A DNA stretch of 64,000 nt, from assembly GCA_020445605.1 (NCBI GenBank), contig JAGRGH010000037.1, positions 177,949 through 241,948 of the forward strand, given 5' to 3'. The notes under the pieces are model-generated. The model was not told where the DNA came from. It saw nothing but the letters and a program-made list of their open reading frames with translations, and searched no databases. Positions 10,341-59,835 of the stretch are shown in pieces. Every line of letters starts with the position of its first letter. Positions within the stretch are counted from its first letter, which is position 1. Made by a program: the position numbers and the translations under genes. This DNA comes from Chromatiales bacterium. Lineage in GTDB: Bacteria; Pseudomonadota; Gammaproteobacteria; JAGRGH01.

Positions 10341-10343
10341 TGT

Positions 10344-10497
10344 CCTGTTGAAAAGACACGTCCGGGCTTTTCAGTAACAACCGGAAAGGGCGGTTTTCGG
10401 CTGCTCACGAAAATCAACCACTTGCGTGTTCGATTTTCGGGCGAGACGTCCCTGTCTCGCGATATCAGGCTGTTGAAATTCTCTTTTCAACAACCTG
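10344..10497. repeat. MITE-like palindromic repeat, copy 1
   Basis: ~155 bp in the glmM / PGPGW-gene spacer. Ends carry gttgaaa..tttcaac hairpins; the right end is TTTTCAACAACCTG. A ~93% identical inverted copy lies at 55203..55364. Confidence 0.75.
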
Positions 10498-10938
10498 CTA
10501 GAACCAGCCACTCACCCATGCGAAGGCCCAGCGCGCGAGCAGAATCAACACCACCAGGCTTGTGAGGCCGATCAGGATCACGACCGTCCAGCGTTTCGCT
10601 GGCGGCGTACGCACCCACCAAGCGTGAATCCGTCCCGCCCAGGCGCGCAGCAGCAACTCGCCGCGGTCAAGCAATCTCGCGACTACGCGAAACTCCTGAC
10701 CGATCAGCGCCAGCCCCACGACCAGCACCAGTAATCCGGGGCCGGGCGTCACCAGCATGACCAGCCCGGCCGTGATCAGCGCAGAACCCGAAGCGATCGC
10801 AATCAGGCTGCCGAGGCCGAACCAGCGTGGCCCCTCGCCGTGCCGCCGCCGGAAGCGGTCCTCGAAGCGCTGGCCCGGCCGGCTCGCGGCAAGTTCGTGC
10901 CAGTGCGCCTTGATCGTTTCGCGAATCTTTGTCCACAT
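10498..10938 (-). CDS. PGPGW-family small transmembrane protein
   Basis: 146-aa C-terminal part of a long ORF (MWTKIRETIKAHW...LVTPGPGLLVLVVGLALIG...) with two hydrophobic hairpins. The upstream extension of the same ORF (to 12438) runs antisense through tpiA/secG/tRNA and is rejected. Confidence 0.55.
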   Translation of the reverse strand: MWTKIRETIKAHWHELAASRPGQRFEDRFRRRHGEGPRWFGLGSLIAIASGSALITAGLVMLVTPGPGLLVLVVGLALIGQEFRVVARLLDRGELLLRAWAGRIHAWWVRTPPAKRWTVVILIGLTSLVVLILLARWAFAWVSGWF

Positions 10939-11091
10939 CGGGCGCGCACGATACGGGCGTGGGTGCCGGAACCGCAACGTCGATTGCCCCTGCGGGCGCC
11001 GCGTCCGGCCGCCGCCGCCGCGGTGTGGATTGATCAAAGCGACCCAAAAAAGGTATCCTGCGCGGCCTTTTTGACTGTGTTGGAGAGACCG

Positions 11092-11844
11092 ATGCGGCAG
11101 CCGCTGGTGGCCGGCAACTGGAAAATGAACGGTTCGCGCGCCAGTGCGCGGGAGCTGTTGGGCGGCGTGCTTGAGGGCCTCGCCGCCACGCCGGTCGCAT
11201 GTGAGGTTGCGGTGTTCGTGCCCTACGTGCTGCTCCAGCAGGTCTCCGAACAGCTCGCGGGCAGCGCCGTCACCTGGGGGGCGCAGAACCTTTCCACGGA
11301 AGCCAAGGGCGCGTTCACCGGCGAGATTTCGGCCGCGATGCTCAAGGAGTTTGGCAGCACGAGCGTCATCGTCGGTCATTCCGAGCGGCGCTCGCTGTAT
11401 GGCGAGACCGACGCGGTGGTCGCTAAGAAGTACCAGGTTGCGCGTGCCGCGGGGCTGCGGCCGATTTTCTGCATTGGCGAGACACTCGACGAGCGCGAAT
11501 CCGGCATCACCAACGAAGTCGTGGCACGCCAGATCGACGCGGTGATCGAGCTCGAAGGCGTGGCCGCGCTGGCCGACGGCGTGATTGCCTACGAGCCGGT
11601 CTGGGCGATCGGCACGGGTCGTACCGCCACACCCGAACAGGCGCAGGCCGTGCATGCGTTCATCCGTGGGCGCATCGCCGACCGCGATGCCACGGTGGCC
11701 GAGGGCGTGCAGATTCTCTACGGTGGCAGCATGAACGCCAAGAATGCCGCAGAGTTGCTTGCCCAGGCGGACATTGATGGGGGCCTGATCGGCGGTGCTT
11801 CGCTGATCGCGGCTGATTTTCTGACAATCTGTCGAGCTGCCTGA
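11092..11844 (+). CDS. tpiA: triosephosphate isomerase
   Basis: MRQPLVAGNWKMNGS...VIVGHSERR...AYEPVWAIGTG. The ATG at 11092 lies inside a longer frame-sharing ORF. Confidence 0.95.
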   Translation: MRQPLVAGNWKMNGSRASARELLGGVLEGLAATPVACEVAVFVPYVLLQQVSEQLAGSAVTWGAQNLSTEAKGAFTGEISAAMLKEFGSTSVIVGHSERRSLYGETDAVVAKKYQVARAAGLRPIFCIGETLDERESGITNEVVARQIDAVIELEGVAALADGVIAYEPVWAIGTGRTATPEQAQAVHAFIRGRIADRDATVAEGVQILYGGSMNAKNAAELLAQADIDGGLIGGASLIAADFLTICRAA

Positions 11845-12249
11845 ATGTTGCTGACCGTACTGCTGGTGGTGCATGTGATGCTGGCCGTGGGCCTTATCGC
11901 GCTCGTGCTTTTGCAGCACGGTCGCGGCGCCGACATGGGTGCGGCGTTCGGCAGCGGTGCGTCGGCGACCGTGTTCGGCGCACGTGGCGCGGCCTCGTTC
12001 CTGACGCGGACCACGGCGCTCCTGGCCACCGGCTTTTTCCTGACCAGCATGGCGCTCGCCTGGCTCGCGACCCGGCCCGCGCCACGCACCGACATCATGG
12101 AAGGCGTGGGGTTGCCGGCCACCGAGATCGCGGCTCCAGCCGCGGAGGCGACCGATGCCGCGCCCGCCGTGACGGTTGCACCGGATGCGCCGCCGCCGGC
12201 CAGCGATCAGGGTGCGGGCATTTCCGCGCCGCCGCCGGCCGCCGACTGA
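11845..12249 (+). CDS. secG: preprotein translocase subunit SecG
   Basis: LLQHGRGADMGAAFGSGASATVFGARGAASFLTRTTALLATGFFL matches SecG; Ala/Pro-rich low-complexity C-terminal tail. tpiA-secG-tRNA-Leu synteny. Confidence 0.88.
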   Translation: MLLTVLLVVHVMLAVGLIALVLLQHGRGADMGAAFGSGASATVFGARGAASFLTRTTALLATGFFLTSMALAWLATRPAPRTDIMEGVGLPATEIAAPAAEATDAAPAVTVAPDAPPPASDQGAGISAPPPAAD

Positions 12250-12352
12250 TCCAAGACCTTGAGTGCGGGACAACGGAACCGTTCCCGCGGATTGGCCCGT
12301 GTCACCGGGCATTCGCGCAGTGTCGCGACAGTTTGTGGACAGCTCTGACTCC

Positions 12353-12437
12353 GCCGACGTGGTGGAATTGGTAGACACGCCGTCTTGAGGGGGCGGTGGC
12401 GCAAGCCGTGCCGGTTCAAGTCCGGCCGTCGGCACCA
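12353..12437 (+). tRNA. tRNA-Leu (anticodon GAG)
   Basis: GCCGACGTGGTGGAATTGGTAGACACGCCGTCTTGAGGGGGCGGTGGCGCAAGCCGTGCCGGTTCAAGTCCGGCCGTCGGCACCA. Long variable arm; anticodon loop TTGAGGG; homologous to E. coli leuU, which also follows secG. Confidence 0.9.
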
Positions 12438-12512
12438 TTCGAGTCAGAATTCGTTGCGGCTCATCTGTCGCGGTTCGCAGCCGCAGGCGCTGAAATCGGC
12501 ACTGGGCGCATG

Positions 12513-44291: not shown

Positions 44292-45014
44292 TTGCCGATG
44301 CGACTGACTCCCATCCTGACATTGACCATCGTGCTTGCGACGATGGTGAGCGGCTGTGCCGTTCGTGAGACCACGCTCCCCGATCATGAAATCGATGCGC
44401 CGCGCTGGTGGCGCGTGCGCTATCTCATGCACTGGCCAGAGGATTCCGGGCCGCTGCTATATCGCGACACCCTGATTGCCAATGAGATCGTTGCGCCGGT
44501 GCTCGAGACCGAGCGCGATGCGATCGTTGCGTGGCGCATGCATCGTCGCGCGCACCGCGAAACGGGCGGTCATGCGTTCAGCTTTTTGTATTACTCGAAT
44601 GCCGCGGACGGCCCGCGGATTGCGCGCGAATTGATGGAATCGCCACTGCTTGAGCGACTGCTCGCCGCGGGCGTGGTCGAGCGGGCGTGGTCGGAGTGGG
44701 GGCGGGCGATCGAGGATTCACCCATCGAGGCCACGAGCGACCCGAGCTGGTCGCCCGCGATGGCGCGCCACTGGCCGTGGTTCATCATGGGTGTGAGCGA
44801 GACCTGGCTGCGTCTGATCGCCGATTTCGCAGGCCCGCGTGCCACAAGTGCGGATGTGAATCTCGAAGCACTGGATGAACGGTACCTGAGGGTCAGCGAA
44901 GCGGTGACCGAACGCTGGGCCGGGGAGGGCGGCCATGCATTCCTGCATCACCTGAATGCCGTGTTCGGCTACGCGCCGGTGCAAACCGGCCCTGATGAGT
45001 GGCAGCGTTTCTGA
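44292..45014 (+). CDS. hypothetical lipoprotein
   Basis: Signal peptide with lipobox (LTIVLATMVSGCA); 240 aa. Only family-level resemblance (DUF2515-like?) and no firm family call. Confidence 0.45.
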   Translation: MPMRLTPILTLTIVLATMVSGCAVRETTLPDHEIDAPRWWRVRYLMHWPEDSGPLLYRDTLIANEIVAPVLETERDAIVAWRMHRRAHRETGGHAFSFLYYSNAADGPRIARELMESPLLERLLAAGVVERAWSEWGRAIEDSPIEATSDPSWSPAMARHWPWFIMGVSETWLRLIADFAGPRATSADVNLEALDERYLRVSEAVTERWAGEGGHAFLHHLNAVFGYAPVQTGPDEWQRF

Positions 45015-45026
45015 GCGGGCCTGGGC

Positions 45027-45125
45027 AAAAAAATGCGCCGCGTCCCTGCGGCGCCATGCGCGGACAAAGCCGGCCAGACAGTCCTTGTGCGGGACGAAAA
45101 CGAAAAAGCGCGGTTTTTCGTTTTC
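45027..45125. terminator. convergent terminator region (two hairpins)
   Basis: GC hairpin GCGCCGC-gtccct-GCGGCGC preceded by AAAAAAA (a T-run on the minus strand), serving the secreted-protein gene. Second 12-bp hairpin GAAAACGAAAAA-gcgcgg-TTTTTCGTTTTC plus T-rich tail, serving the + strand. Confidence 0.55.
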
Positions 45126-45207
45126 TTACATTTTCAGTGGCTTAGGGACATTGAAAGTGGTGGCACGTCCCTGTGCCACGGGAAACTCTGAATTGATCAG
45201 AGTTTCC

Positions 45208-46791
45208 TTAGAGATCCCACCAGTCGAAATCGAAGTTCGTACCGAGCAGAGGGTCGATATAGATCGCGAGAAGCTGTCCGTACTCGACCAGCGCCGCGTC
45301 CGGATGATCCTCGTGGGCCTGTACGTCAAACATATACCAGCCGGCGCCGAGCACATCGTGCATGTCGGTGATGCCGGAGGATTCCTCGTCGGTCGTGATG
45401 AACTCGGCTGCGCCCTCGGAGAAGTAGCGGGGGTCGTGCGCCGCGACTTCGATCAGCTCCTGGGTCTCGATGCCGTAGAGCCAGATCTTGCCCAGACGCG
45501 CATTGCCGCCGACGTCTTCCTGCATGACGATTCGGCCGTAGATGTCGACCGTCAGGTTGTCGAGCATCTGGTGACCTTCGTCACCGTCGAGCAGCAGTTC
45601 AATCGTGCCTCCGTAACGGAACGGATCATCGACATCACGGAAGCGCAGTTGCCACAAGCGACTGGCGAGGTTGCTCGCGTCCCCGGCGCCACGGAAGTTG
45701 CCGGTCGTCACGAAATAGAAGTCGTTCTCGTGGCCGGGACGGGGATCCCATGCGCCGTCCTCGATGCGCTGAAAACGCGTAACGTCGCCCGCAATCGATT
45801 CGGCCTGAAGTTCGGCGCCAGTCTTGTTTGCGACCCATCCATGATCAACCAGGGTGAACTGCGCGCGCCGAACAAAGCCCATCTCGGCATTGCCGAGACC
45901 GAATTCGTTGCTTTCCTCTGGAATTGCGTCACCAGCCTGATACACGCGTACGCCACGCAGTATGCCGTTGAGGAGTCCCGCGCGCGCGACCACGTTGCCG
46001 GTCGTCTGCTTCCAGCCAGCGTAAACATAGAGCTCTGACGGCGCGTCGGTGCTGGCAGGGTCGGTCACACGATCCGCGTCGTCGAGTCCGATCACAAGTG
46101 TGCGCATGCGCGAGTGCGGGTGCGGCGCGATGTTTTCAAAAGCCATCTTCCCGAGCGTCGGCAGTTCATAGAGCTTGCCGGCTTCGGGGCCCGTCGCAAC
46201 GTATGCGAACCCGCGGCCGTGGTCGTCGGAGAACGGCGGACGGGTTTCCTCTCCGGTGAGAAAGATTCGATCTGCGGTACCGTAGGTTTCGCCGTTTTCA
46301 AAAATGAACGCCTGTGGTGAAGCGAGGGTGGCCGAACAGAACCGGTTGAAAGCGTCGGTTCCGCTGACAAACCACTGGCTGTCGGTGTCCCAGGTATTGA
46401 CGTCGGTGCCGCTTGCGACCGCATCGCGACCACTGAGCACCTCGAGGTTTGTATTGCGGATCTTCCAGCGCGACAGGAACGAGCCGGTTGAACCATGTGC
46501 ACGCACGGTGCCGGCCTCCGGCCCAAACTCGTGATTCAGGATAAGGTCGAACGTGCCGTCGCCGTTGTTGATGCCACCCAGACCATCGGGGATTCCAGCC
46601 ATTGTGTAGCCGCCGATTGTATCGCCGACGGTCAACACAGAGATCACGGCCACGCGGTCGCCGAGCAGCGGGTTTGCCTTCATGTACGGTTCGGCAGCGG
46701 TGCTTGGCCCGATATTGGCTGCACTGACCGCGGTCGAGGCTACGCCGATCGCCATCGCGATCGCGGAGCGACATACGCTATGAATTTTCAT
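45208..46791 (-). CDS. secreted hypothetical protein (possible beta-propeller / PhoX-like fold)
   Basis: Signal peptide MKIHSVCRSAIAMAIGVASTAVSAANI with an SD GGTGA 7 nt upstream of the ATG at 46791. Gly/Asp-rich repeats (FQRIEDGAWDPR, YFVTTG) are compatible with DUF839/PhoX-like propeller proteins, but the family assignment is not secure. Confidence 0.5.
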   Translation of the reverse strand: MKIHSVCRSAIAMAIGVASTAVSAANIGPSTAAEPYMKANPLLGDRVAVISVLTVGDTIGGYTMAGIPDGLGGINNGDGTFDLILNHEFGPEAGTVRAHGSTGSFLSRWKIRNTNLEVLSGRDAVASGTDVNTWDTDSQWFVSGTDAFNRFCSATLASPQAFIFENGETYGTADRIFLTGEETRPPFSDDHGRGFAYVATGPEAGKLYELPTLGKMAFENIAPHPHSRMRTLVIGLDDADRVTDPASTDAPSELYVYAGWKQTTGNVVARAGLLNGILRGVRVYQAGDAIPEESNEFGLGNAEMGFVRRAQFTLVDHGWVANKTGAELQAESIAGDVTRFQRIEDGAWDPRPGHENDFYFVTTGNFRGAGDASNLASRLWQLRFRDVDDPFRYGGTIELLLDGDEGHQMLDNLTVDIYGRIVMQEDVGGNARLGKIWLYGIETQELIEVAAHDPRYFSEGAAEFITTDEESSGITDMHDVLGAGWYMFDVQAHEDHPDAALVEYGQLLAIYIDPLLGTNFDFDWWDL

Positions 46792-47003
46792 GCATTCACC
46801 TTGCATTGCCAGCAGATTGATGTTTTCCCGGCATCAGGTCCGGGGCGGCAAAGCTTGCCGGCGCGAGGTGACGCGTCGTTGACGCGCGATTTACGAATAC
46901 ATCATTGTTTTGCTGCGCTACGGTTGCGGGTGAAATATCGCGGACATGCCGATGAAACATCGGCATCTCAATTGGCGGCGTTCGGTCGCCGGTCTGCGAT
47001 CGG

Positions 47004-52402: not shown

Positions 52403-53275
52403 TTGGACCCCAACATGGCCAACTCGCCGCATATTTACGAAGTCACCGAAGCCACGTTCGACGCCGAGGTGATCGCCCGATCGCACGAAGTGCCCGTGCT
52501 CGTGGACTTCTGGGCCGACTGGTGTGCGCCCTGCCGCATGCTCATGCCAGTGCTCCAGGCAGTCGTGGACTCGCACGCCGGCCAGGTCGTACTCGCGAAG
52601 GTCGATACCGACAAGGAACAGCGCCTCGCCGGCACGCACCGCGTGCGCGGCCTGCCGACCGTGCGGCTCTACAAGGACGGCAAGGTCGTCGAGGAGTTCA
52701 CCGGCGCGCAGCCGGAATCCGTCGTGCGTGCCATGGTCGAGCGTCATCTGGCGCGACCGGGCGATCCGCTGCGCCACGAGGCGCGCTCCGCGCTCGCCGC
52801 CGGCAACGCAGAACACGCCGTGCAGTATCTGACCGAGGCCCTGTCGCTGGACCCGGACAACGGCGAAATCCAGGTCGAACTCGCCGAAGCGCTGGCCCAG
52901 CAGGGCGACCTGGATGCCGCGCAGGAACGACTGGATGCATTGCCGCTACAGATTGCCGAGACCGAACCCGCGCGCCGACTGCGTGCGACGCTGATGTTCG
53001 CGCGCGCCGCCGGCACCGGCGGCGATGCGGACATCGCGGCAATGCTTGCGGCCGATCCGAACGACAGCGAGGCGCTGTACCGCCGCGCGGCGCAATCGGT
53101 GGTGCGCGGCGAATACCCGGAAGCCCTCGAAGACCTGCTCAGCGTGCTGCGCAACGATCGCGGCTTTCGCGATGGCGCCGCGCGTGAAGGCATGCTCGCC
53201 GTGTTCGAGATTCTCGGCCCGCAACATGAACTCGCCGCCCAGTTCCGCCGCCGGATGGCCGCGGCACTGAACTGA
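52403..53275 (+). CDS. thioredoxin-TPR fusion protein (YbbN/CnoX-like co-chaperone)
   Basis: N-terminal thioredoxin fold with an intact WCAPC active site. C-terminal TPR-like helical repeats resembling E. coli YbbN. Confidence 0.8.
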   Translation: MDPNMANSPHIYEVTEATFDAEVIARSHEVPVLVDFWADWCAPCRMLMPVLQAVVDSHAGQVVLAKVDTDKEQRLAGTHRVRGLPTVRLYKDGKVVEEFTGAQPESVVRAMVERHLARPGDPLRHEARSALAAGNAEHAVQYLTEALSLDPDNGEIQVELAEALAQQGDLDAAQERLDALPLQIAETEPARRLRATLMFARAAGTGGDADIAAMLAADPNDSEALYRRAAQSVVRGEYPEALEDLLSVLRNDRGFRDGAAREGMLAVFEILGPQHELAAQFRRRMAAALN

Positions 53276-53278
53276 GCA

Positions 53279-53300
53279 AGCGGCCGCTTTTGTGACACAA
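53279..53300 (+). terminator. candidate intrinsic terminator after the thioredoxin-TPR gene
   Basis: AAGCGGC/GCCGCTT hairpin followed by TTTGTG. Confidence 0.4.
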
Positions 53301-53395
53301 CCAACCCGGAGACTGCCGTGCGCGGATGGCCGAGGTTGGGAAGCAGGTTCGTGTCGCTGGCTGTTGGACGAGCCCGAAAACAAGGCAGGTAACCA

Positions 53396-54199
53396 ATGCT
53401 CGCGACCATCCGCTACTACTATTCAAGGTTTGGAATCCCCGGCGTGTGGTCGGCCACCAAATTGAAGCTCGGCGGTTCGGATCATCTCATCGAGGTCAGA
53501 AAGCGCGGGGTCAAGGCGCCGTTTTTTCTCCGACTGCGAACCAGTGACCTGCCGACCTTCGAGCAGATTTTTGTCCGCCAGGAGTACGACTTTCTTGCCG
53601 GGTCCCCGCCGAAGGTGATCGTGGATGCAGGCGCAAACATCGGGCTCGCGTCGACCTGTTTTGCAAACAGGTTTCCACTTGCAAAGATCATCGCGATCGA
53701 GCCGGAAGACAGCAATTTCAGATTGCTGGAACGCAACGTCTCGCCTTATCCGAATGTGGTTCCCGTTCAGGCGGCATTGTGGAACTCCAATGGCGAGATC
53801 AGCCTGGTTGACCCGGGATATGGCAAATGGGGGTACATGACGAGCGATGATGAAGCTGCCCAGAGGAGCGTCAATCAGGTTTGTCATCCGGTGGCGGCCA
53901 TGACGGTGGACCGGGTGATGCGCGACTTTGGCCTGGACAGGATCGATATCCTCAAAATGGATATCGAGGGCGCCGAGCGGGAGGTGTTCGCCGGTTCTTC
54001 GTCCTGGATTGAAAGCGTCGAGTCAATCATTGTTGAACTGCACGAGCGGTTGAAACCCGGCTGTAATCGAAGTTTCTACAACGGTACCAACGGATTCGAC
54101 TCGGAGTGGAGGCAAGGGGAAAGGATCTATCTTTCAAGACGCGGGGTCATCCGTCCGGGCCCCGGCGCAGGTCGGACCAGAAGGGCTGCCGTCGCATAG
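53396..54199 (+). CDS. FkbM-family SAM-dependent methyltransferase
   Basis: VIVDAGANIGLASTCFANRFP...IIAIEPEDSNFRLLERN...IDILKMDIEGAEREVF (Methyltransf_21/FkbM signature). GC ~56%, well below the flanks. Confidence 0.85.
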   Translation: MLATIRYYYSRFGIPGVWSATKLKLGGSDHLIEVRKRGVKAPFFLRLRTSDLPTFEQIFVRQEYDFLAGSPPKVIVDAGANIGLASTCFANRFPLAKIIAIEPEDSNFRLLERNVSPYPNVVPVQAALWNSNGEISLVDPGYGKWGYMTSDDEAAQRSVNQVCHPVAAMTVDRVMRDFGLDRIDILKMDIEGAEREVFAGSSSWIESVESIIVELHERLKPGCNRSFYNGTNGFDSEWRQGERIYLSRRGVIRPGPGAGRTRRAAVA

Positions 54200-54381
54200 G
54201 GTTCCGGCGTTCGGCCGACTCACCGGTTGCGCTATGCGGCGCTTCAGTGCTGCGGTCGTGGCGGTTTGCGTCGAAACAAGATGCCACAGGCAGGAACGGA
54301 ATTCCCTGCGCGGTTTCCGGATTGCGCGGTCGGCACGTATGCTGTGCGGCACGTGATTCGCATCCTTCCGGTCGGCGAGCG

Positions 54382-55170
54382 ATGGGCATTCTCAGAAAAC
54401 TGGCCAGAATACGGAGGTATGGGCTGACTGGTGCGCCGATCAGGCAAGACCGTCTCATCGTATCCGCGGAGAAACGTCTGGTTGTCGGTTTCACGCCCAA
54501 GGCGGCCTGTACGGTCGCCAGCAAGCTGTTCTTTCATACGATCGGAAAGCTGGACGAAGCCCGGGATCAATCGGACTGGATCCATGATTACAGGGAGGTT
54601 TACTGTGAGAAAAACCCGGTCCGCTATGTCCACCTGGTGTCCAGGTCATTCCTGAAAATCAAGTTTGTTCGGAATCCATTCCACCGTGCGGTAAGCAGCT
54701 ACATCCATGCGATGAGGTACGGGTACGTGGGCGCGGAAATCGAAAGGTCGCTCCGTCTGGGGGATTTCCGGGATGCGTCGTTTCGGGACTTCGTCCGCTT
54801 TCTCACCATGGAGGACCTGCATCGTTCGAACGTCCACCACGATTACCAGAAACTACGGCTCGAAGGTGTCGCGTTTCACTTCGACCACATAGTCCGGGTG
54901 GAAAATATTCTGGAACGGCTCAGTCAGATCAAAGCAGCCGATGGACGCGGCCTGGACTGGAACGAATCGTTGCTGAGCAGTCGACATCACACCAAGAAGA
55001 AGTGCGGGGAACAGGTGGCGGCGTTCGACCTGCCCTTCAAATCGCTCGTTGAGACGGGCGCTGGCTTTCCGGATTACAGCCGGTTTTACGATCCGCAATT
55101 GCTGGATGCGGTATACGAATTGTATAAGGTCGATTTTGATGCGTACGGATACGCTCGCGGGAAGCTTTGA
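54382..55170 (+). CDS. carbohydrate-sulfotransferase-like protein (Sulfotransfer_2-type motif)
   Basis: 5'-PSB-like GFTPKAACTVASKLFF and 3'-PB-like KFVRNPFHRAVSSYIHAM mirror the VPKVACTNW / FVREPFERLVSAYR motifs of HNK-1/chondroitin-type sulfotransferases. GC ~54%. ATG at 54382 inside the longer ORF. Confidence 0.6.
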   Translation: MGILRKLARIRRYGLTGAPIRQDRLIVSAEKRLVVGFTPKAACTVASKLFFHTIGKLDEARDQSDWIHDYREVYCEKNPVRYVHLVSRSFLKIKFVRNPFHRAVSSYIHAMRYGYVGAEIERSLRLGDFRDASFRDFVRFLTMEDLHRSNVHHDYQKLRLEGVAFHFDHIVRVENILERLSQIKAADGRGLDWNESLLSSRHHTKKKCGEQVAAFDLPFKSLVETGAGFPDYSRFYDPQLLDAVYELYKVDFDAYGYARGKL

Positions 55171-55202
55171 ATCGTTCAGTCTTTGCCGGGACAGGTCGTT
55201 GG

Positions 55203-55364
55203 CAGGCGGTTGAAATTCTGATTTCAACGGCCTGATATCGCGCGACAGGGACGTCTCGCCCGAAAATCGAACACACAAGTGTTTGATTTTCGTGAGCAAC
55301 CGAAAACCGCGCTTTTCGGTTGCGATGTTGAAAAGGCCATGGATGGGCCGTTTTCAACAACCTG
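55203..55364. repeat. MITE-like palindromic repeat, copy 2 (inverted relative to copy 1)
   Basis: ~160 bp with terminal hairpins GTTGAAATTCTGATTTCAAC and GTTGAAAAGGCC..GGGCCGTTTTCAAC. Right TIR TTTTCAACAACCTG abuts the stop codon of the downstream minus-strand gene. Core is ~93% identical to the reverse complement of 10381..10471. Confidence 0.75.
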
Positions 55365-56066
55365 TTAGCGCATGCGCACGACGGCATATAGATCGTAGGG
55401 GTCGCGGAAGGTCCACATGCAGTCGGCAAACCCGGCGCGCGCGGCGATGGCCTCCCAGCTCGGGATGGATTCCGGGTGATCCTGATTCAGCACGTGGGCG
55501 CTGACGCGGCTCAACTGGTCCTCGCTCAGATCGGCCCACTGATCGCGAAAGCAGCGCACGCTGCGTTCGAGAAACTGTTCGCGGGTCTCGTCGTCGCGAC
55601 GGAACACGTCATAGACGAAGATCTCACCGTCGTCGGTCAGCTGGTCGTGCATCCACGCGAGCAGTTCGCGTTTCTCGTCGTTTTCCAGATGATGCATGGA
55701 ATAGCCGGCGACGATCAGGTGGTACGGCCGGTCGGCGTAGTCGGCCGACCGCTGCATGGTGTCGGCGTGTAGCTGGATGTCACGCACGCGGCCGTCCAGG
55801 TTCTTGCGGGCGAACTCCAGCGCCGGCGCGGACAGATCGATCCCGCGATAGTGCGCGATCTCGTTGCCTTCGAGCGCCTGGCTCAGCACGTAGGCATCGC
55901 CACAGCCGACCTCGAGCACGTTCATGTCCACATGCAGCAGGCCGCCGAGCGCCCGACGCATCTGGTCGGTGATCTCGTTGTGCAGCATGTAGTTGCCGGC
56001 AATGACCTGCTGGTAGAGCTGCCAGCCTTCGAAGAAGGACTGGATGTCTTTGTCGTCCTGGTTCAT
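55365..56066 (-). CDS. class I SAM-dependent methyltransferase
   Basis: Motif I VLEVGCGDAYVLSQAL, acidic motif II, ~233 aa. Co-oriented downstream of glgB-glgA. Confidence 0.75.
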   Translation of the reverse strand: MNQDDKDIQSFFEGWQLYQQVIAGNYMLHNEITDQMRRALGGLLHVDMNVLEVGCGDAYVLSQALEGNEIAHYRGIDLSAPALEFARKNLDGRVRDIQLHADTMQRSADYADRPYHLIVAGYSMHHLENDEKRELLAWMHDQLTDDGEIFVYDVFRRDDETREQFLERSVRCFRDQWADLSEDQLSRVSAHVLNQDHPESIPSWEAIAARAGFADCMWTFRDPYDLYAVVRMR

Positions 56067-57672: not shown

Positions 57673-59835
57673 TCAGTCCTGCACCAGGATCAGCCCGCCG
57701 AGCGGTGGCAGGTTCAGCCGGATGCTGAACGGCCGGTGCATCTCGGCGTGTTCACCGGCGATGAATTCCACGCCGGCCGGGTATTCGCTGCCGCCGTAAC
57801 AGGCGGCGTCGCTGTTCAGCGCGACACGGTAGCGCCCGGCACGCGGCACGCCGAGCGCGTAGTCGTTTCTCGGCACCGGCGTGAAATTCAGCACGACGAT
57901 GCACAGCGAATCGCCGGCACGACGCAGGAAGCTCAGCACCGACTGGCGCGCGTCGTCGCACTCCAGCCACTCGAAGCCCTGGGCCTCGAAGTCGTGCGCG
58001 TGCAGTGCGGTCAGGTCGCGGTACAGGTGGTTGAGATCGCGCACCAGTGACTGCACGCCGCGATGCGGCCCGCGTTCGAGCAGGTGCCACTCCAGCGCGG
58101 TTTCGGAATTCCATTCCAGCCCGTGCGCGAAATCGCTGCCCATGAACAGCAGCTTCTTGCCCGGATACGCCCACTGATAGGTGTAGAGCAGGCGCAGGTT
58201 CGCGAACCGTTGCCAGGTGTCGCCCGGCATCTTGTCCAGCATGGAACGTTTGCCGTGCACGACTTCATCGTGCGAGAGCGGCAGCACGAAGTTTTCCGTC
58301 CAGCTGTAGAGCATGCCGAAGGTCAGCCGGTGGTGATGCCAGGGACGGTGCACGGGATCGCGCTCGAGGTAATCGAGCGTGTCGTGCATCCAGCCCATGT
58401 TCCATTTCATGGAGAAGCCGAGCCCACCGTGATCGACCGGACGCGAGACCTGCGCCCAGGCCGTGGATTCTTCGGCGACGATCACCGCGCCCGGATGCTG
58501 GGCGTGGGCAACGCTGTTGAGCTGCCGGATGAACTCGATCGCGTCGAGGTTCTCGCGTCCGCCGTGTGGGTTCGGCAGCCATTCGCCCTCGCGTCGCGAG
58601 TAGTCGAGATACAGCATGGAGGCGACCGCATCCACGCGCAGGCCGTCGATGTGCATTTCGTCGAGCCAGTACAGCGCGCTGGAGAGCAGGAAATTGCGCA
58701 CCTCGTTGCGGCCGTAGTTGAAGATCAGCGTGCCCCAGTCGGGATGCTCACCGCGGCGCGGGTCGGCGTGTTCGTACAGCGCGCTGCCGTCGAAGCGCGC
58801 GAGCGCAAAGTCGTCGCGCGGGAAATGCGCCGGCGTCCAGTCCAGCAGCACGCCAATGCCGTGCTGGTGCAGGCGGTCGACGAAGGCGCGGAACTCGTCG
58901 GGCGTGCCGAAGCGCCGGGTCGGCGCGTAGTAGCCGGTCGTCTGGTAGCCCCAGGAGGCGTCGAACGGGTGTTCCATGACCGGCAGCAGTTCGACGTGGG
59001 TGTAGCCCATGTCCGCCACGTATCCGGCGAGCCGGTCGGCGAGTTCCAGGTAGTTCAGGAACTGGCCGTTGGCGTCGCGTTGCCATGAGCCCAGGTGCAC
59101 CTCGTAGACCGACATCGGCGCGTGGCGCCAGTCGCGCGCGGCGCGCCCGGCCATCCAGTCCTGGTCGGCCCATGCGTACCGCCCTTCGGCGGTGACCACG
59201 GATGCCGTGGCCGGGCGCAGTTCGAACGCGCGGCCGTAGGGATCGCTCTTCAGCCGCAGCGCGCCGTCGCGGGTGCGGATCTCGAATTTGTACAGGGTGC
59301 CGGCACTGACGCCCGGCACGAACAGCTCGAATACGCCGCTGGCGCCGCGCGAACGCATGGGGTGGCAGCGGCCGTCCCAGCGGTTGAAGTCGCCGACGAT
59401 GCTGACGCGCTCGGCGTTCGGCGACCACACCGCGAAGCGGGTGCCGGCGAAGCCGTCGACGGTCGCCTCGTGCGCGCCGAGGAACCGCCAGGCATGCCAG
59501 TGCTTGCCCTGGCCGAACAGGTGCAGATCGAATTCCGAGATCTGCGGCGGAAAGCAGTACGGATCATGGCGGCGGTGTTTGCCGCCGTCGTGGTCGCGCC
59601 AGACGATCTCGTAGCGCTCGGGAACACACCCGGCCGGGCCGGTCCACTCGAACAGTCCGGCGGGCTTGGCCTGCACCAGTTCGGGGCCGTCCGCGCCGAT
59701 CCGTGCACTGCTGGCGTGCGGCAGCAGGACGCGTACGGTCACATTCGCGCCGTGCGGGTGCCGGCCCAGCACCTCGAACGGGTCGTGGTGGCGGGCTTCA
59801 ACAATGCGATGTCGTGCGTCTTCGCTGGCGGCCAT
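57673..59835 (-). CDS. glgB: 1,4-alpha-glucan branching enzyme (GH13)
   Basis: GH13 catalytic regions ([28 protein letters not shown]) and N-terminal CBM48 region. ATG at 59835 inside the longer ORF. Confidence 0.95.

Follow-up and report, generated by a model that had tools for sequence, protein, structure and literature searches.

A two-gene islet of foreign composition encoding a predicted methyltransferase and a sulfotransferase in a housekeeping region of an uncultured gammaproteobacterium

Methylation and sulfation meet on one sugar in Sinorhizobium fredii NGR234, in which the fucose of Nod factors is methylated by the 2-O-methyltransferase NoeI and sulfated by the sulfotransferase NoeE (PMC4881576, PMC4659905), both enzymes decorating a single glycoconjugate residue (PMC4881576). 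Sulfotransferases of PF03567, PF00685, and PF13469 have been placed in cyanobacterial polysaccharide clusters (PMC8205485); XssA and XssE of the Synechocystis synechan (xss) cluster are PAPS-type enzymes of this set of families, for which a cytoplasmic action on a glycan intermediate is predicted. FkbM-family methyltransferases occur in O-antigen, flagellin-glycan, and other glycan loci, and their genes are listed in LPS and flagellin-glycosylation islands (PMC4875605, PMC5109656).

The 64-kb stretch of DNA analysed here (the window) contains a gene pair that resembles each of these systems in part. The pair is predicted to combine the same activities as NoeI and NoeE. This likeness is functional only: the window lacks nod genes, and tblastn of the sulfotransferase (E ≤ 1e-3) against a plasmid collection that includes pNGR234a returned matches in Bacillus and Priestia only and nothing on pNGR234a itself. 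NGR234 is also absent among the 60 FkbM matches listed. The sulfotransferase is likened to XssA and XssE by family, not by sequence, and its homologues are found among glycosyltransferases; unlike the xss genes, it lies outside a polysaccharide cluster, beside one methyltransferase in a housekeeping region of a gammaproteobacterial host. The methyltransferase, like those of glycan loci, scores above the PF05050 and TIGR01444 thresholds and has an intact SAM motif, but it belongs to a tight cross-phylum subfamily of ~257 aa. The features of the locus are as follows.

52415-53275, + strand, thioredoxin-TPR (CnoX/YbbN-like) gene, 286 aa, left native flank (PF00085 3.6e-27, PF14561 1.6e-25; GC3 0.82, CAI 0.71; start according to metagenome contig gene calls)
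53276-53395, no strand, left junction, 120-nt intergenic (GC 61.7%; fold z = -0.15 over the whole stretch)
53396-54199, + strand, FkbM-family SAM-dependent methyltransferase gene by family, 267 aa, MCB1865389.1, foreign composition
54200-54381, no strand, spacer between the FkbM and sulfotransferase genes, 182 nt, GC 64.8%
54382-55170, + strand, Sulfotransfer_2-family (PAPS-type) sulfotransferase gene, 262 aa, MCB1865390.1, foreign composition
55203-55364, no strand, MITE/REP-like dispersed repeat copy 1 (five hairpins, imperfect 14-nt terminal inverted repeats, GC 50.6%)
55365-56066, - strand, class-I SAM methyltransferase gene, 233 aa, right native flank (PF08242, PF13649, and PF13489 at ~1e-13; GC3 0.85, CAI 0.71; metagenome contig gene calls)
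10341-10497, opposite orientation to copy 1, MITE/REP-like dispersed repeat copy 2 (93% identity over 102 nt; terminal motif at 10484-10497)

The sulfotransferase gene starts at ATG 54382, according to the gene calls in all independent metagenome contigs and the homologue alignment; on the same grounds, a longer ORF from GTG 54106 was rejected as the gene. The spacer has no Rfam match, and the upstream extension of the ORF has no Pfam match. A first-pass annotation of this DNA had placed the pair between a redox chaperone gene and the glycogen locus. The left side of this placement stands, but the immediate right neighbour is a native class-I methyltransferase gene rather than a glycogen gene; it is the last gene of a co-directional glgB-glgA-methyltransferase string. 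The junctions of the islet are identical (100%) in contigs of many independent assemblies, indicating that the islet is not an assembly artefact. All contigs of the organism that span the site carry it at 100% identity, and no islet-free population variant was found among them. In a single divergent contig of the organism, the differences are confined to glgB.

Composition across the window, recomputed for GC in sliding windows and for codon adaptation as the annotation had proposed, is uneven, and the islet is its extreme. The 2.1 kb in question (53276-55364, measured as 53300-55380) has 56.6% GC, the minimum for any 2 kb in a scan of the 64-kb window, and its tetranucleotide distance is the maximum in the window (z = 6.2). 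The low GC reported at first pass is thus real, but the background is 65.2% (window mean) rather than ~67%. The FkbM gene has 57.0% GC and a GC3 of 0.69 (z = -3.0), and the sulfotransferase gene 54.8% GC and a GC3 of 0.68 (z = -3.4), against a GC3 of 0.82 ± 0.04 (minimum 0.72) in the 45 other genes of the window. The codon-adaptation index is 0.44 and 0.45, respectively, compared with 0.70 ± 0.03 for native genes. In accordance with the atypical codon usage ascribed to both coding sequences beforehand, each lies under all 45 other genes in GC3 and in codon adaptation, the latter by ~7 sd. First-codon-position GC is 0.56-0.60 in the islet genes versus 0.64-0.79. Lowered GC3 (0.72-0.75) is also seen in some native genes of the window.

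The phyletic pattern of the FkbM protein is also atypical. It shares 55-65% identity with ~1,700 proteins from Planctomycetes, Verrucomicrobiota, Methylobacter, and Cellvibrionales-type genomes, and a protein search for the origin of the best matches leads to unrelated phyla at 65% identity, whereas the glgA and thioredoxin-TPR proteins of the host match nothing above 51% anywhere. Horizontal acquisition of the islet, as claimed at first pass, is therefore well supported on two independent grounds, composition and phyletic pattern. The accompanying claim that it was relatively recent is not supported: identity to the nearest homologue is no higher than 65% for FkbM and 42% for the sulfotransferase. 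The GC3 of the window genes (~0.68-0.69) falls between that of the homologues (0.24-0.50) and that of the host (0.82), which suggests long residence and partial amelioration of the pair; it is from these values that we infer the timing.

Across GTDB representatives, JGI metagenomes, and a set of 5.8 billion proteins, the host has no close relative, the nearest being ~50% identical and non-syntenic. Scanned with glgA, the GTDB representative genomes reached 51% identity at most, and none of 80 loci has the thioredoxin-TPR, methyltransferase, or islet genes so arranged. A thioredoxin-TPR search reached 49-51% identity at best; neither of the two contexts examined is syntenic, and the nearest thioredoxin-TPR loci (47-49%) lack both islet genes. 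The native methyltransferase, used as query against JGI metagenomes, found no relative. The borders of the islet show no integrase, tRNA, or flanking direct repeats, the sole tRNA of the window being at 12353-12437, and the plasmid search yielded no DNA-level donor. Carriage by phage was rejected: viral contigs hold only distant relatives, at ≤43% and ≤34% identity.

On the 5' side of the islet, an intrinsic terminator had been proposed after the thioredoxin-TPR gene. The palindrome AAGCGGCCGCTT at this site forms no stable hairpin (MFE -3.8 kcal/mol, z = +1.75), and a terminator scan found no site in the left junction (53276-53395); the proposal is not supported. On the 3' side, the ~160-bp palindromic, MITE-like repeat described at first pass is real, and it has a second copy elsewhere in the window. 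Copy 1 folds into five hairpins of -13 to -17 kcal/mol each, with an overall MFE of -87.9 kcal/mol (z = -6.5 on the plus strand and -6.9 on the minus strand). Its ends read CAGGCGGTTGAAAT and, in reverse complement, CAGGTTGTTGAAAA; 12 of the 14 positions agree. Three occurrences of the terminal motif CAGGTTGTTGAAAA were counted, compared with 0.07 expected, and in copy 1 it occupies 55351-55364. Copy 2, 93% identical to copy 1 over a 102-nt core, fills the entire gap between the convergent genes for glmM and a PGPGW membrane protein. Copy 1 begins 32 nt past the sulfotransferase stop codon and at its other end meets the native methyltransferase gene directly at the stop codon of the latter (TAA + CAGGTTGTTGAAAA); the arrangement at copy 2 is identical (TAG + CAGGTTGTTGAAAA). 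As to a target-site duplication, copy 2 has CTAG on either side, in each case a stop codon, whereas copy 1 has TTGG and TTAG; these flanks come from two copies only.

The element shares with MITEs and REP/BIME-type repeats its length of ~160 bp, its lack of coding sequence, a structure of stacked hairpins bounded by terminal inverted repeats, a copy number of at least two, and a position between convergent genes. It differs from them in that both copies start right after a stop codon, no partner transposase (IS or RAYT) is seen, and matches are lacking in Rfam, plasmids, and JGI metagenomes, the last searched with its 21-nt core. No further copy is present in the loci of other organisms that were examined, and the window contains no transposase. 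Since copy 2 lies in an unrelated housekeeping gap and copy 1 adjoins a native stop codon as copy 2 does, the hairpin element is a native intergenic repeat of the dispersed type, distinct from the islet, which it adjoins by position only. Accordingly, the description of the islet as bounded by a MITE-like element is correct as to position, but it applies to one side only: there is no significant local alignment to the repeat in 53276-53395, and nothing links the element to the insertion.

Profile searches confirm the two family assignments made at first pass, FkbM methyltransferase and carbohydrate-sulfotransferase-like protein. The sulfotransferase matches PF03567 at 8e-15 with 56 bits (cutoff 22) over profile positions 2-252 of 252, and has the sulfotransferase (P-loop-like alpha/beta) fold. 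In an alignment of nine sequences, the 5'-phosphosulfate loop, of consensus PKxxxT/S, is present as T38-P-K40-A-A-C-T with K40 invariant, and the 3'-phosphate motif, of consensus RxPxxRxxS, is invariant as V96-R-N-P-F-x-R102-x-V-S105. From established knowledge of the fold, we take both conserved motifs to bind PAPS.

The FkbM protein matches PF05050 at 2e-18 with 67.5 bits (cutoff 22.7) and TIGR01444 at 2e-28 with 99.5 bits (cutoff 37.7). It has a class-I Rossmann methyltransferase fold with a glycine-rich SAM-binding motif that is invariant in the alignment of the subfamily, and is predicted by family to be a SAM-dependent O-methyltransferase. Mean column identity within the subfamily is 69% across phyla; structure and sequence searches found no member with a solved structure or a described substrate. 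A 10-residue GC-rich C-terminal tail is unique to the window copy. In both high-GC foreign loci examined, the FkbM homologue is a strong low-GC3 outlier (0.32 versus 0.62-0.90 in L101; 0.45 versus 0.68-0.75 in L108), which points to repeated transfers of this gene. A search of solved structures by sequence gave nothing informative for either islet protein. A role in anti-phage defence was rejected, neither protein having a PADLOC match.

What the pair might act on can be approached through the neighbours of its homologues. Two of three metagenome contexts of sulfotransferase homologues lie among glycosyltransferases and one is a lone gene; the neighbours include GT2-GT2-methyltransferase, GtrA, and GT1/GT4/GT2 genes. 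A Bacillus plasmid homologue is accompanied by a glycosyltransferase, two further sulfotransferases, and a TauE exporter. FkbM homologues lie in glycan clusters in two of five metagenome contexts, at the edge of Wzx-type polysaccharide clusters that also hold a PF13469 sulfotransferase, and are lone genes in unrelated neighbourhoods in the other three. Glycan clusters thus account for four of eight metagenome contexts, the others being lone genes. This mixture favours decoration of a polysaccharide made elsewhere in the genome, and it is on this basis that we infer the class of substrate. Within the 64-kb window there are no glycan-assembly genes, only housekeeping and glycogen genes, and the earlier suggestion that the substrate is made by neighbouring functions finds no support. 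The same annotation spoke of a glycan decoration cassette. Glycan decoration is plausible, given the four metagenome contexts and the Bacillus plasmid, but "cassette" overstates the case: the two families are never adjacent or fused in the eight metagenome and one plasmid contexts, and the ten longest relatives of the sulfotransferase combine ST with ST or with TPR, none of them with FkbM. Joint action on one molecule is therefore an assumption.

Taken as a whole, the locus is probably best explained as a fixed piece of foreign DNA that encodes two tailoring enzymes for a glycan made elsewhere, with the repeat as a separate element. According to this explanation, 2.1 kb of foreign DNA would have become fixed among the housekeeping genes of a deep-branching gammaproteobacterium that is uncultured and carries the NCBI label "Chromatiales bacterium". 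It would encode two soluble cytoplasmic enzymes, an FkbM-type methyltransferase using SAM and a Sulfotransfer_2-type sulfotransferase using PAPS. Most likely, they would methylate and sulfate the sugar residues of a glycan specified by genes elsewhere in the genome. This glycan could be a repeat unit of O-antigen, capsule, or exopolysaccharide that is tailored on the cytoplasmic face and then exported, and the outcome would be altered surface charge and antigenicity.

Two alternatives dispute the origin of the islet. The genes could be native, their low GC reflecting weak expression or relaxed codon selection; the few native genes with lowered GC3 and the lack of mobility genes or border repeats are in line with this idea. 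We regard it as very improbable, because weak expression would have to account for GC3 and codon adaptation below those of every other gene, for low GC at the first codon position as well, for an FkbM protein nearer to those of other phyla than the housekeeping proteins are to any relative, and for FkbM homologues that are low-GC outliers in other high-GC hosts. Alternatively, the hairpin element could be the vehicle of the islet or a sign of where it integrated, the whole being a MITE-flanked or MITE-targeted mobile unit. Its position so close to the sulfotransferase stop codon, its terminal inverted repeats, and its occurrence in at least two copies invite this reading, which is nevertheless extremely doubtful: the islet has a single copy and no 5' remnant, copy 2 sits in a housekeeping gap devoid of foreign DNA, copy 1 meets the native stop codon in the register of copy 2, and no transposase is nearby.

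The other alternatives concern what the two genes do together, if anything. Separate arrival of functionally unrelated genes, side by side only because the spot downstream of a convergent gene pair tolerates insertions, is rather unlikely. The families are non-adjacent in the eight metagenome and one plasmid contexts and no fusion protein is seen, the FkbM subfamily often travels alone, and the GC-rich spacer, with its host-like 64.8% GC, leaves room for two arrivals. Against this stand the nearly identical GC, GC3, and codon adaptation of the two genes, their common strand, and the FkbM homologues found alongside another sulfotransferase family in two polysaccharide clusters; the pair may have arrived together. 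Tailoring of a small molecule or natural product (a polyketide, lipid, or lipo-oligosaccharide signal) in place of a polysaccharide is unlikely. The FkbM family is named after a polyketide O-methyltransferase, FkbM itself acting in FK506 biosynthesis, and three of the five FkbM-homologue contexts are not glycan clusters. NoeI and NoeE provide a precedent on rhizobial Nod factors (PMC4881576, PMC4659905). However, the window contains no PKS, NRPS, or nod genes, a natural-product cluster appears in none of the eight metagenome contexts nor in the Bacillus plasmid context, and no similarity to the sulfotransferase was detected on pNGR234a. It is extremely improbable that the pair, together with the native methyltransferase of the glgB-glgA string, modifies alpha-glucan to give a methylated and sulfated glycogen-like polysaccharide, a proposal whose sole support is adjacency. 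The methylated-glucan logic is comparable to that of the mycobacterial methylglucose polysaccharides. A sulfated glycogen-like product, if true, would be an unusual bacterial example; to our knowledge, sulfated polysaccharides are hardly documented outside cyanobacteria.

Small glycan-tailoring islets are a routine bacterial means of surface variation, and decoration of a glycan made elsewhere, the explanation we favour, would be ordinary in kind. Two side results may be useful. One is the FkbM subfamily itself: its conservation extends across phyla, its members frequently stand alone, and both in the window and in the two GC-rich foreign hosts that were compared it is a marked outlier with low GC3. 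The other is a hairpin-rich intergenic repeat that fits precisely between stop codons. Carbohydrate sulfation has been little mapped in bacteria other than rhizobia, mycobacteria, and cyanobacteria (PMC8205485). The value of the locus as a lead lies in a PAPS-type sulfotransferase with intact motifs that is stably kept in an uncultured, phylogenetically isolated gammaproteobacterium.

The islet, a low-GC stretch at 53276-55364, contains two genes whose coordinates are reproduced by independent gene calls in metagenome contigs. The features discussed here are as follows.

52415-53275, + strand: thioredoxin-TPR gene, left neighbour
53396-54199, + strand: FkbM methyltransferase, 267 aa (PF05050 2e-18, TIGR01444 2e-28; MCB1865389.1)
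54382-55170, + strand: Sulfotransfer_2 sulfotransferase, 262 aa (PF03567 8e-15, full profile length; MCB1865390.1)
55203-55364: repeat copy 1, ~160 bp, five hairpins (MFE -87.9 kcal/mol, z = -6.5)
55365-56066, - strand: native class-I SAM methyltransferase, right neighbour (GC3 0.85)
10341-10497: repeat copy 2, inverted orientation, 93% identity over 102 nt

The first-pass annotation described the islet as low in GC with atypical codons, and our measurements agree. The GC content of the window is 65.2%, and 53300-55380 (56.6%) is the lowest of all its 2-kb stretches. GC3 is 0.69 (z = -3.0) for the FkbM gene and 0.68 (z = -3.4) for the sulfotransferase gene, compared with 0.82 ± 0.04 (minimum 0.72) for 45 other genes. 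Codon adaptation relative to the native genes is 0.44 and 0.45, respectively, compared with 0.70 ± 0.03 for the other genes of the window. Tetranucleotide distance in 2-kb windows is maximal at 53501-55500 (z = 6.2). Given the high GC3 of the native methyltransferase gene next door, the atypical DNA ends sharply on the right. The 182-nt spacer between the islet genes (54200-54381) has a host-like GC content of 64.8%, and the last 10 residues of the FkbM protein form a GC-rich tail not present in homologues; spacer and tail may reflect a remodelled junction or separate arrivals. After the islet, GC content in the window is lowest at 44292-46806 (60-61%), where neither of two ORFs matches Pfam: 44292-45014 (+) and 45208-46806 (-), the latter called as 527 aa in metagenome contigs.

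For the FkbM protein, 1,669 homologues are found, many of them 55-65% identical and of nearly uniform length (~257 aa), from Planctomycetes, Verrucomicrobiota, Methylobacter, and Pseudomaricurvus; mean column identity in this very conserved subfamily is 69% across phyla. In contrast, the best match is at most 51% identical for host glgA (185,579 species representatives) and at most 49-51% for the thioredoxin-TPR protein (5.8 billion proteins). The homologue loci have a GC content of 34-58%, and the homologous genes themselves a GC3 of 0.24-0.50. We examined FkbM homologues in five foreign loci (L098 699-1466, L107 150-923, L100 8001-8774, L101 8001-8810, and L108 8001-8843). In all five, the FkbM gene lies 7-22 GC points under the remainder of its locus, and in the two high-GC loci, L101 and L108, it stands out by a strikingly low GC3 (0.32 versus 0.62-0.90; 0.45 versus 0.68-0.75), as the window's gene does. 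Therefore, both the cross-phylum identities, higher than those of host housekeeping proteins, and the low-GC3 outlier pattern argue that the islet was horizontally acquired, and its foreign origin is well supported. The FkbM gene looks like a serial horizontal traveller. The best match of the sulfotransferase is 42% identical, in a clade that is not tiny (425 representatives, E<=1e-30). The acquisition had also been called relatively recent; this is unsupported, because the islet genes have a composition intermediate between that of the homologues and that of the host, and no close donor is found.

Judged from sequence matches, the uncultured host, named 'Chromatiales bacterium' at NCBI, belongs to a phylogenetically very isolated lineage. 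Its species is absent among the GTDB representative genomes searched, and no collection searched contains a syntenic relative of the islet site. The islet is present at 100% identity in every contig of the organism that covers the site, so it is not an assembly chimera. Its borders lack an integrase, a tRNA, and flanking direct repeats. The islet proteins have no PADLOC defence-system matches and no close viral relatives. A viral contig (IMGVR_UViG_3300033149_002876; L158 974-1291 and 6001-6483) carries distant members of both families (28% and 23% identity), ~5 kb apart amid short co-directional genes. A 120-kb metagenome contig (L002/L008) equals the window sequence up to ~58500, has 104 differences in 500 nt from window 58500-59013 within glgB, and then runs into genes other than those of the window (glycogen phosphorylase, ABC transporter). 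This contig represents either an assembler-joined second glgB paralogue or a recombinant strain.

Repeat copy 1 lies within the 194 nt that separate the convergent sulfotransferase and native methyltransferase genes, and folds similarly on the opposite strand. Copy 2 fills the entire gap from the stop codon of glmM (+) to that of a PGPGW membrane-protein gene (-), with CTAG on both sides. The element terminates in imperfect inverted repeats with the pattern CAGGTTGTTGAAAA (3 matches, 0.07 expected), and in both copies one end directly follows a minus-strand stop codon (TAA or TAG, then CAGGTTGTTGAAAA). Size, inverted repeats, and copy number are those of a MITE; no partner transposase is seen, and the element could equally be named REP/BIME-like. 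It has no match in Rfam, the plasmid collection, or JGI metagenomes. The hairpin element reported to bound the islet is present, but on one side only. Because the islet has a single copy, with no second copy or remnant at its 5' border, and this copy has the same register to the native gene as copy 2, we read the repeat as a native intergenic element, next to the islet by chance, rather than an insertion vehicle. The intrinsic terminator proposed after the thioredoxin-TPR gene does not hold up: the palindrome (AAGCGGCCGCTT with TTGTG) has no stable fold (MFE -3.8 kcal/mol, z = +1.75) and is missed by the terminator scan. Elsewhere in the window, tRNA-Leu(GAG) (12353-12437, +) extends into the 5' end of a long minus-strand ORF (10498-12438), whose actual start must therefore be further downstream.

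Both islet proteins look functional. The FkbM protein retains the invariant DAGANIG and DIEGAE motifs, and its structure model has a class-I methyltransferase fold. Both enzymes use cytoplasmic cofactors and lack a signal peptide-like N-terminus; they should therefore act inside the cell.

Sulfotransferase relatives follow a GT2-GT2-methyltransferase fusion near GtrA (metagenome locus L094), lie amid GT1/GT4/GT2 genes (metagenome locus L096), or accompany a glycosyltransferase, two further sulfotransferases, and a TauE exporter (Bacillus plasmid); one is a lone gene. Some are fusions of two sulfotransferase domains or of TPR and sulfotransferase (P0256, P0257, P0267, P0280, P0284, P0325, P0327). 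Of five FkbM relatives, two are at the margin of Wzx-type polysaccharide clusters that include a PF13469 sulfotransferase, and the other three are lone genes. Across the subfamily, lone genes are frequent, with MazEF/RHS, Lhr helicase, or truA as neighbours. Sulfotransferases of these Pfam families reside in polysaccharide clusters, where the lipid-linked repeat unit is modified on the cytoplasmic side (PMC8205485). From these contexts and publications, glycan decoration, as first proposed, is the best-supported role of the pair, plausible rather than proven. NoeI/NoeE of NGR234 are a good parallel in function (PMC4881576), but a relationship to the pair in sequence is not detected. FkbM-sulfotransferase adjacency or fusion is never found in the homologue contexts and fusion proteins examined.

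The substrate had been attributed to neighbouring genes. However, the 64-kb window has no glycan-assembly genes except the glycogen set, so a surface glycan substrate must come from elsewhere in the genome. Nor do the glycogen genes directly adjoin the islet: the native methyltransferase, the final gene of a co-directional glgB-glgA-methyltransferase string, intervenes. Adjacency is the sole argument that the pair and this methyltransferase act on alpha-glucan, which we consider highly improbable. Beside glgA, 80 other genomes and the JGI metagenomes yielded no homologue of this native methyltransferase. The sole PADLOC match of the native methyltransferase is mad2 (6e-15), over the generic methyltransferase domain.

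Overall, the original observation is largely correct once the terminator is dropped and the bounding repeat and glycogen adjacency are amended; of its interpretation, foreign origin and plausible glycan decoration remain, without recency or a neighbour-made substrate. A small compositional islet with tailoring enzymes beside a dispersed intergenic repeat is an already well-known type.
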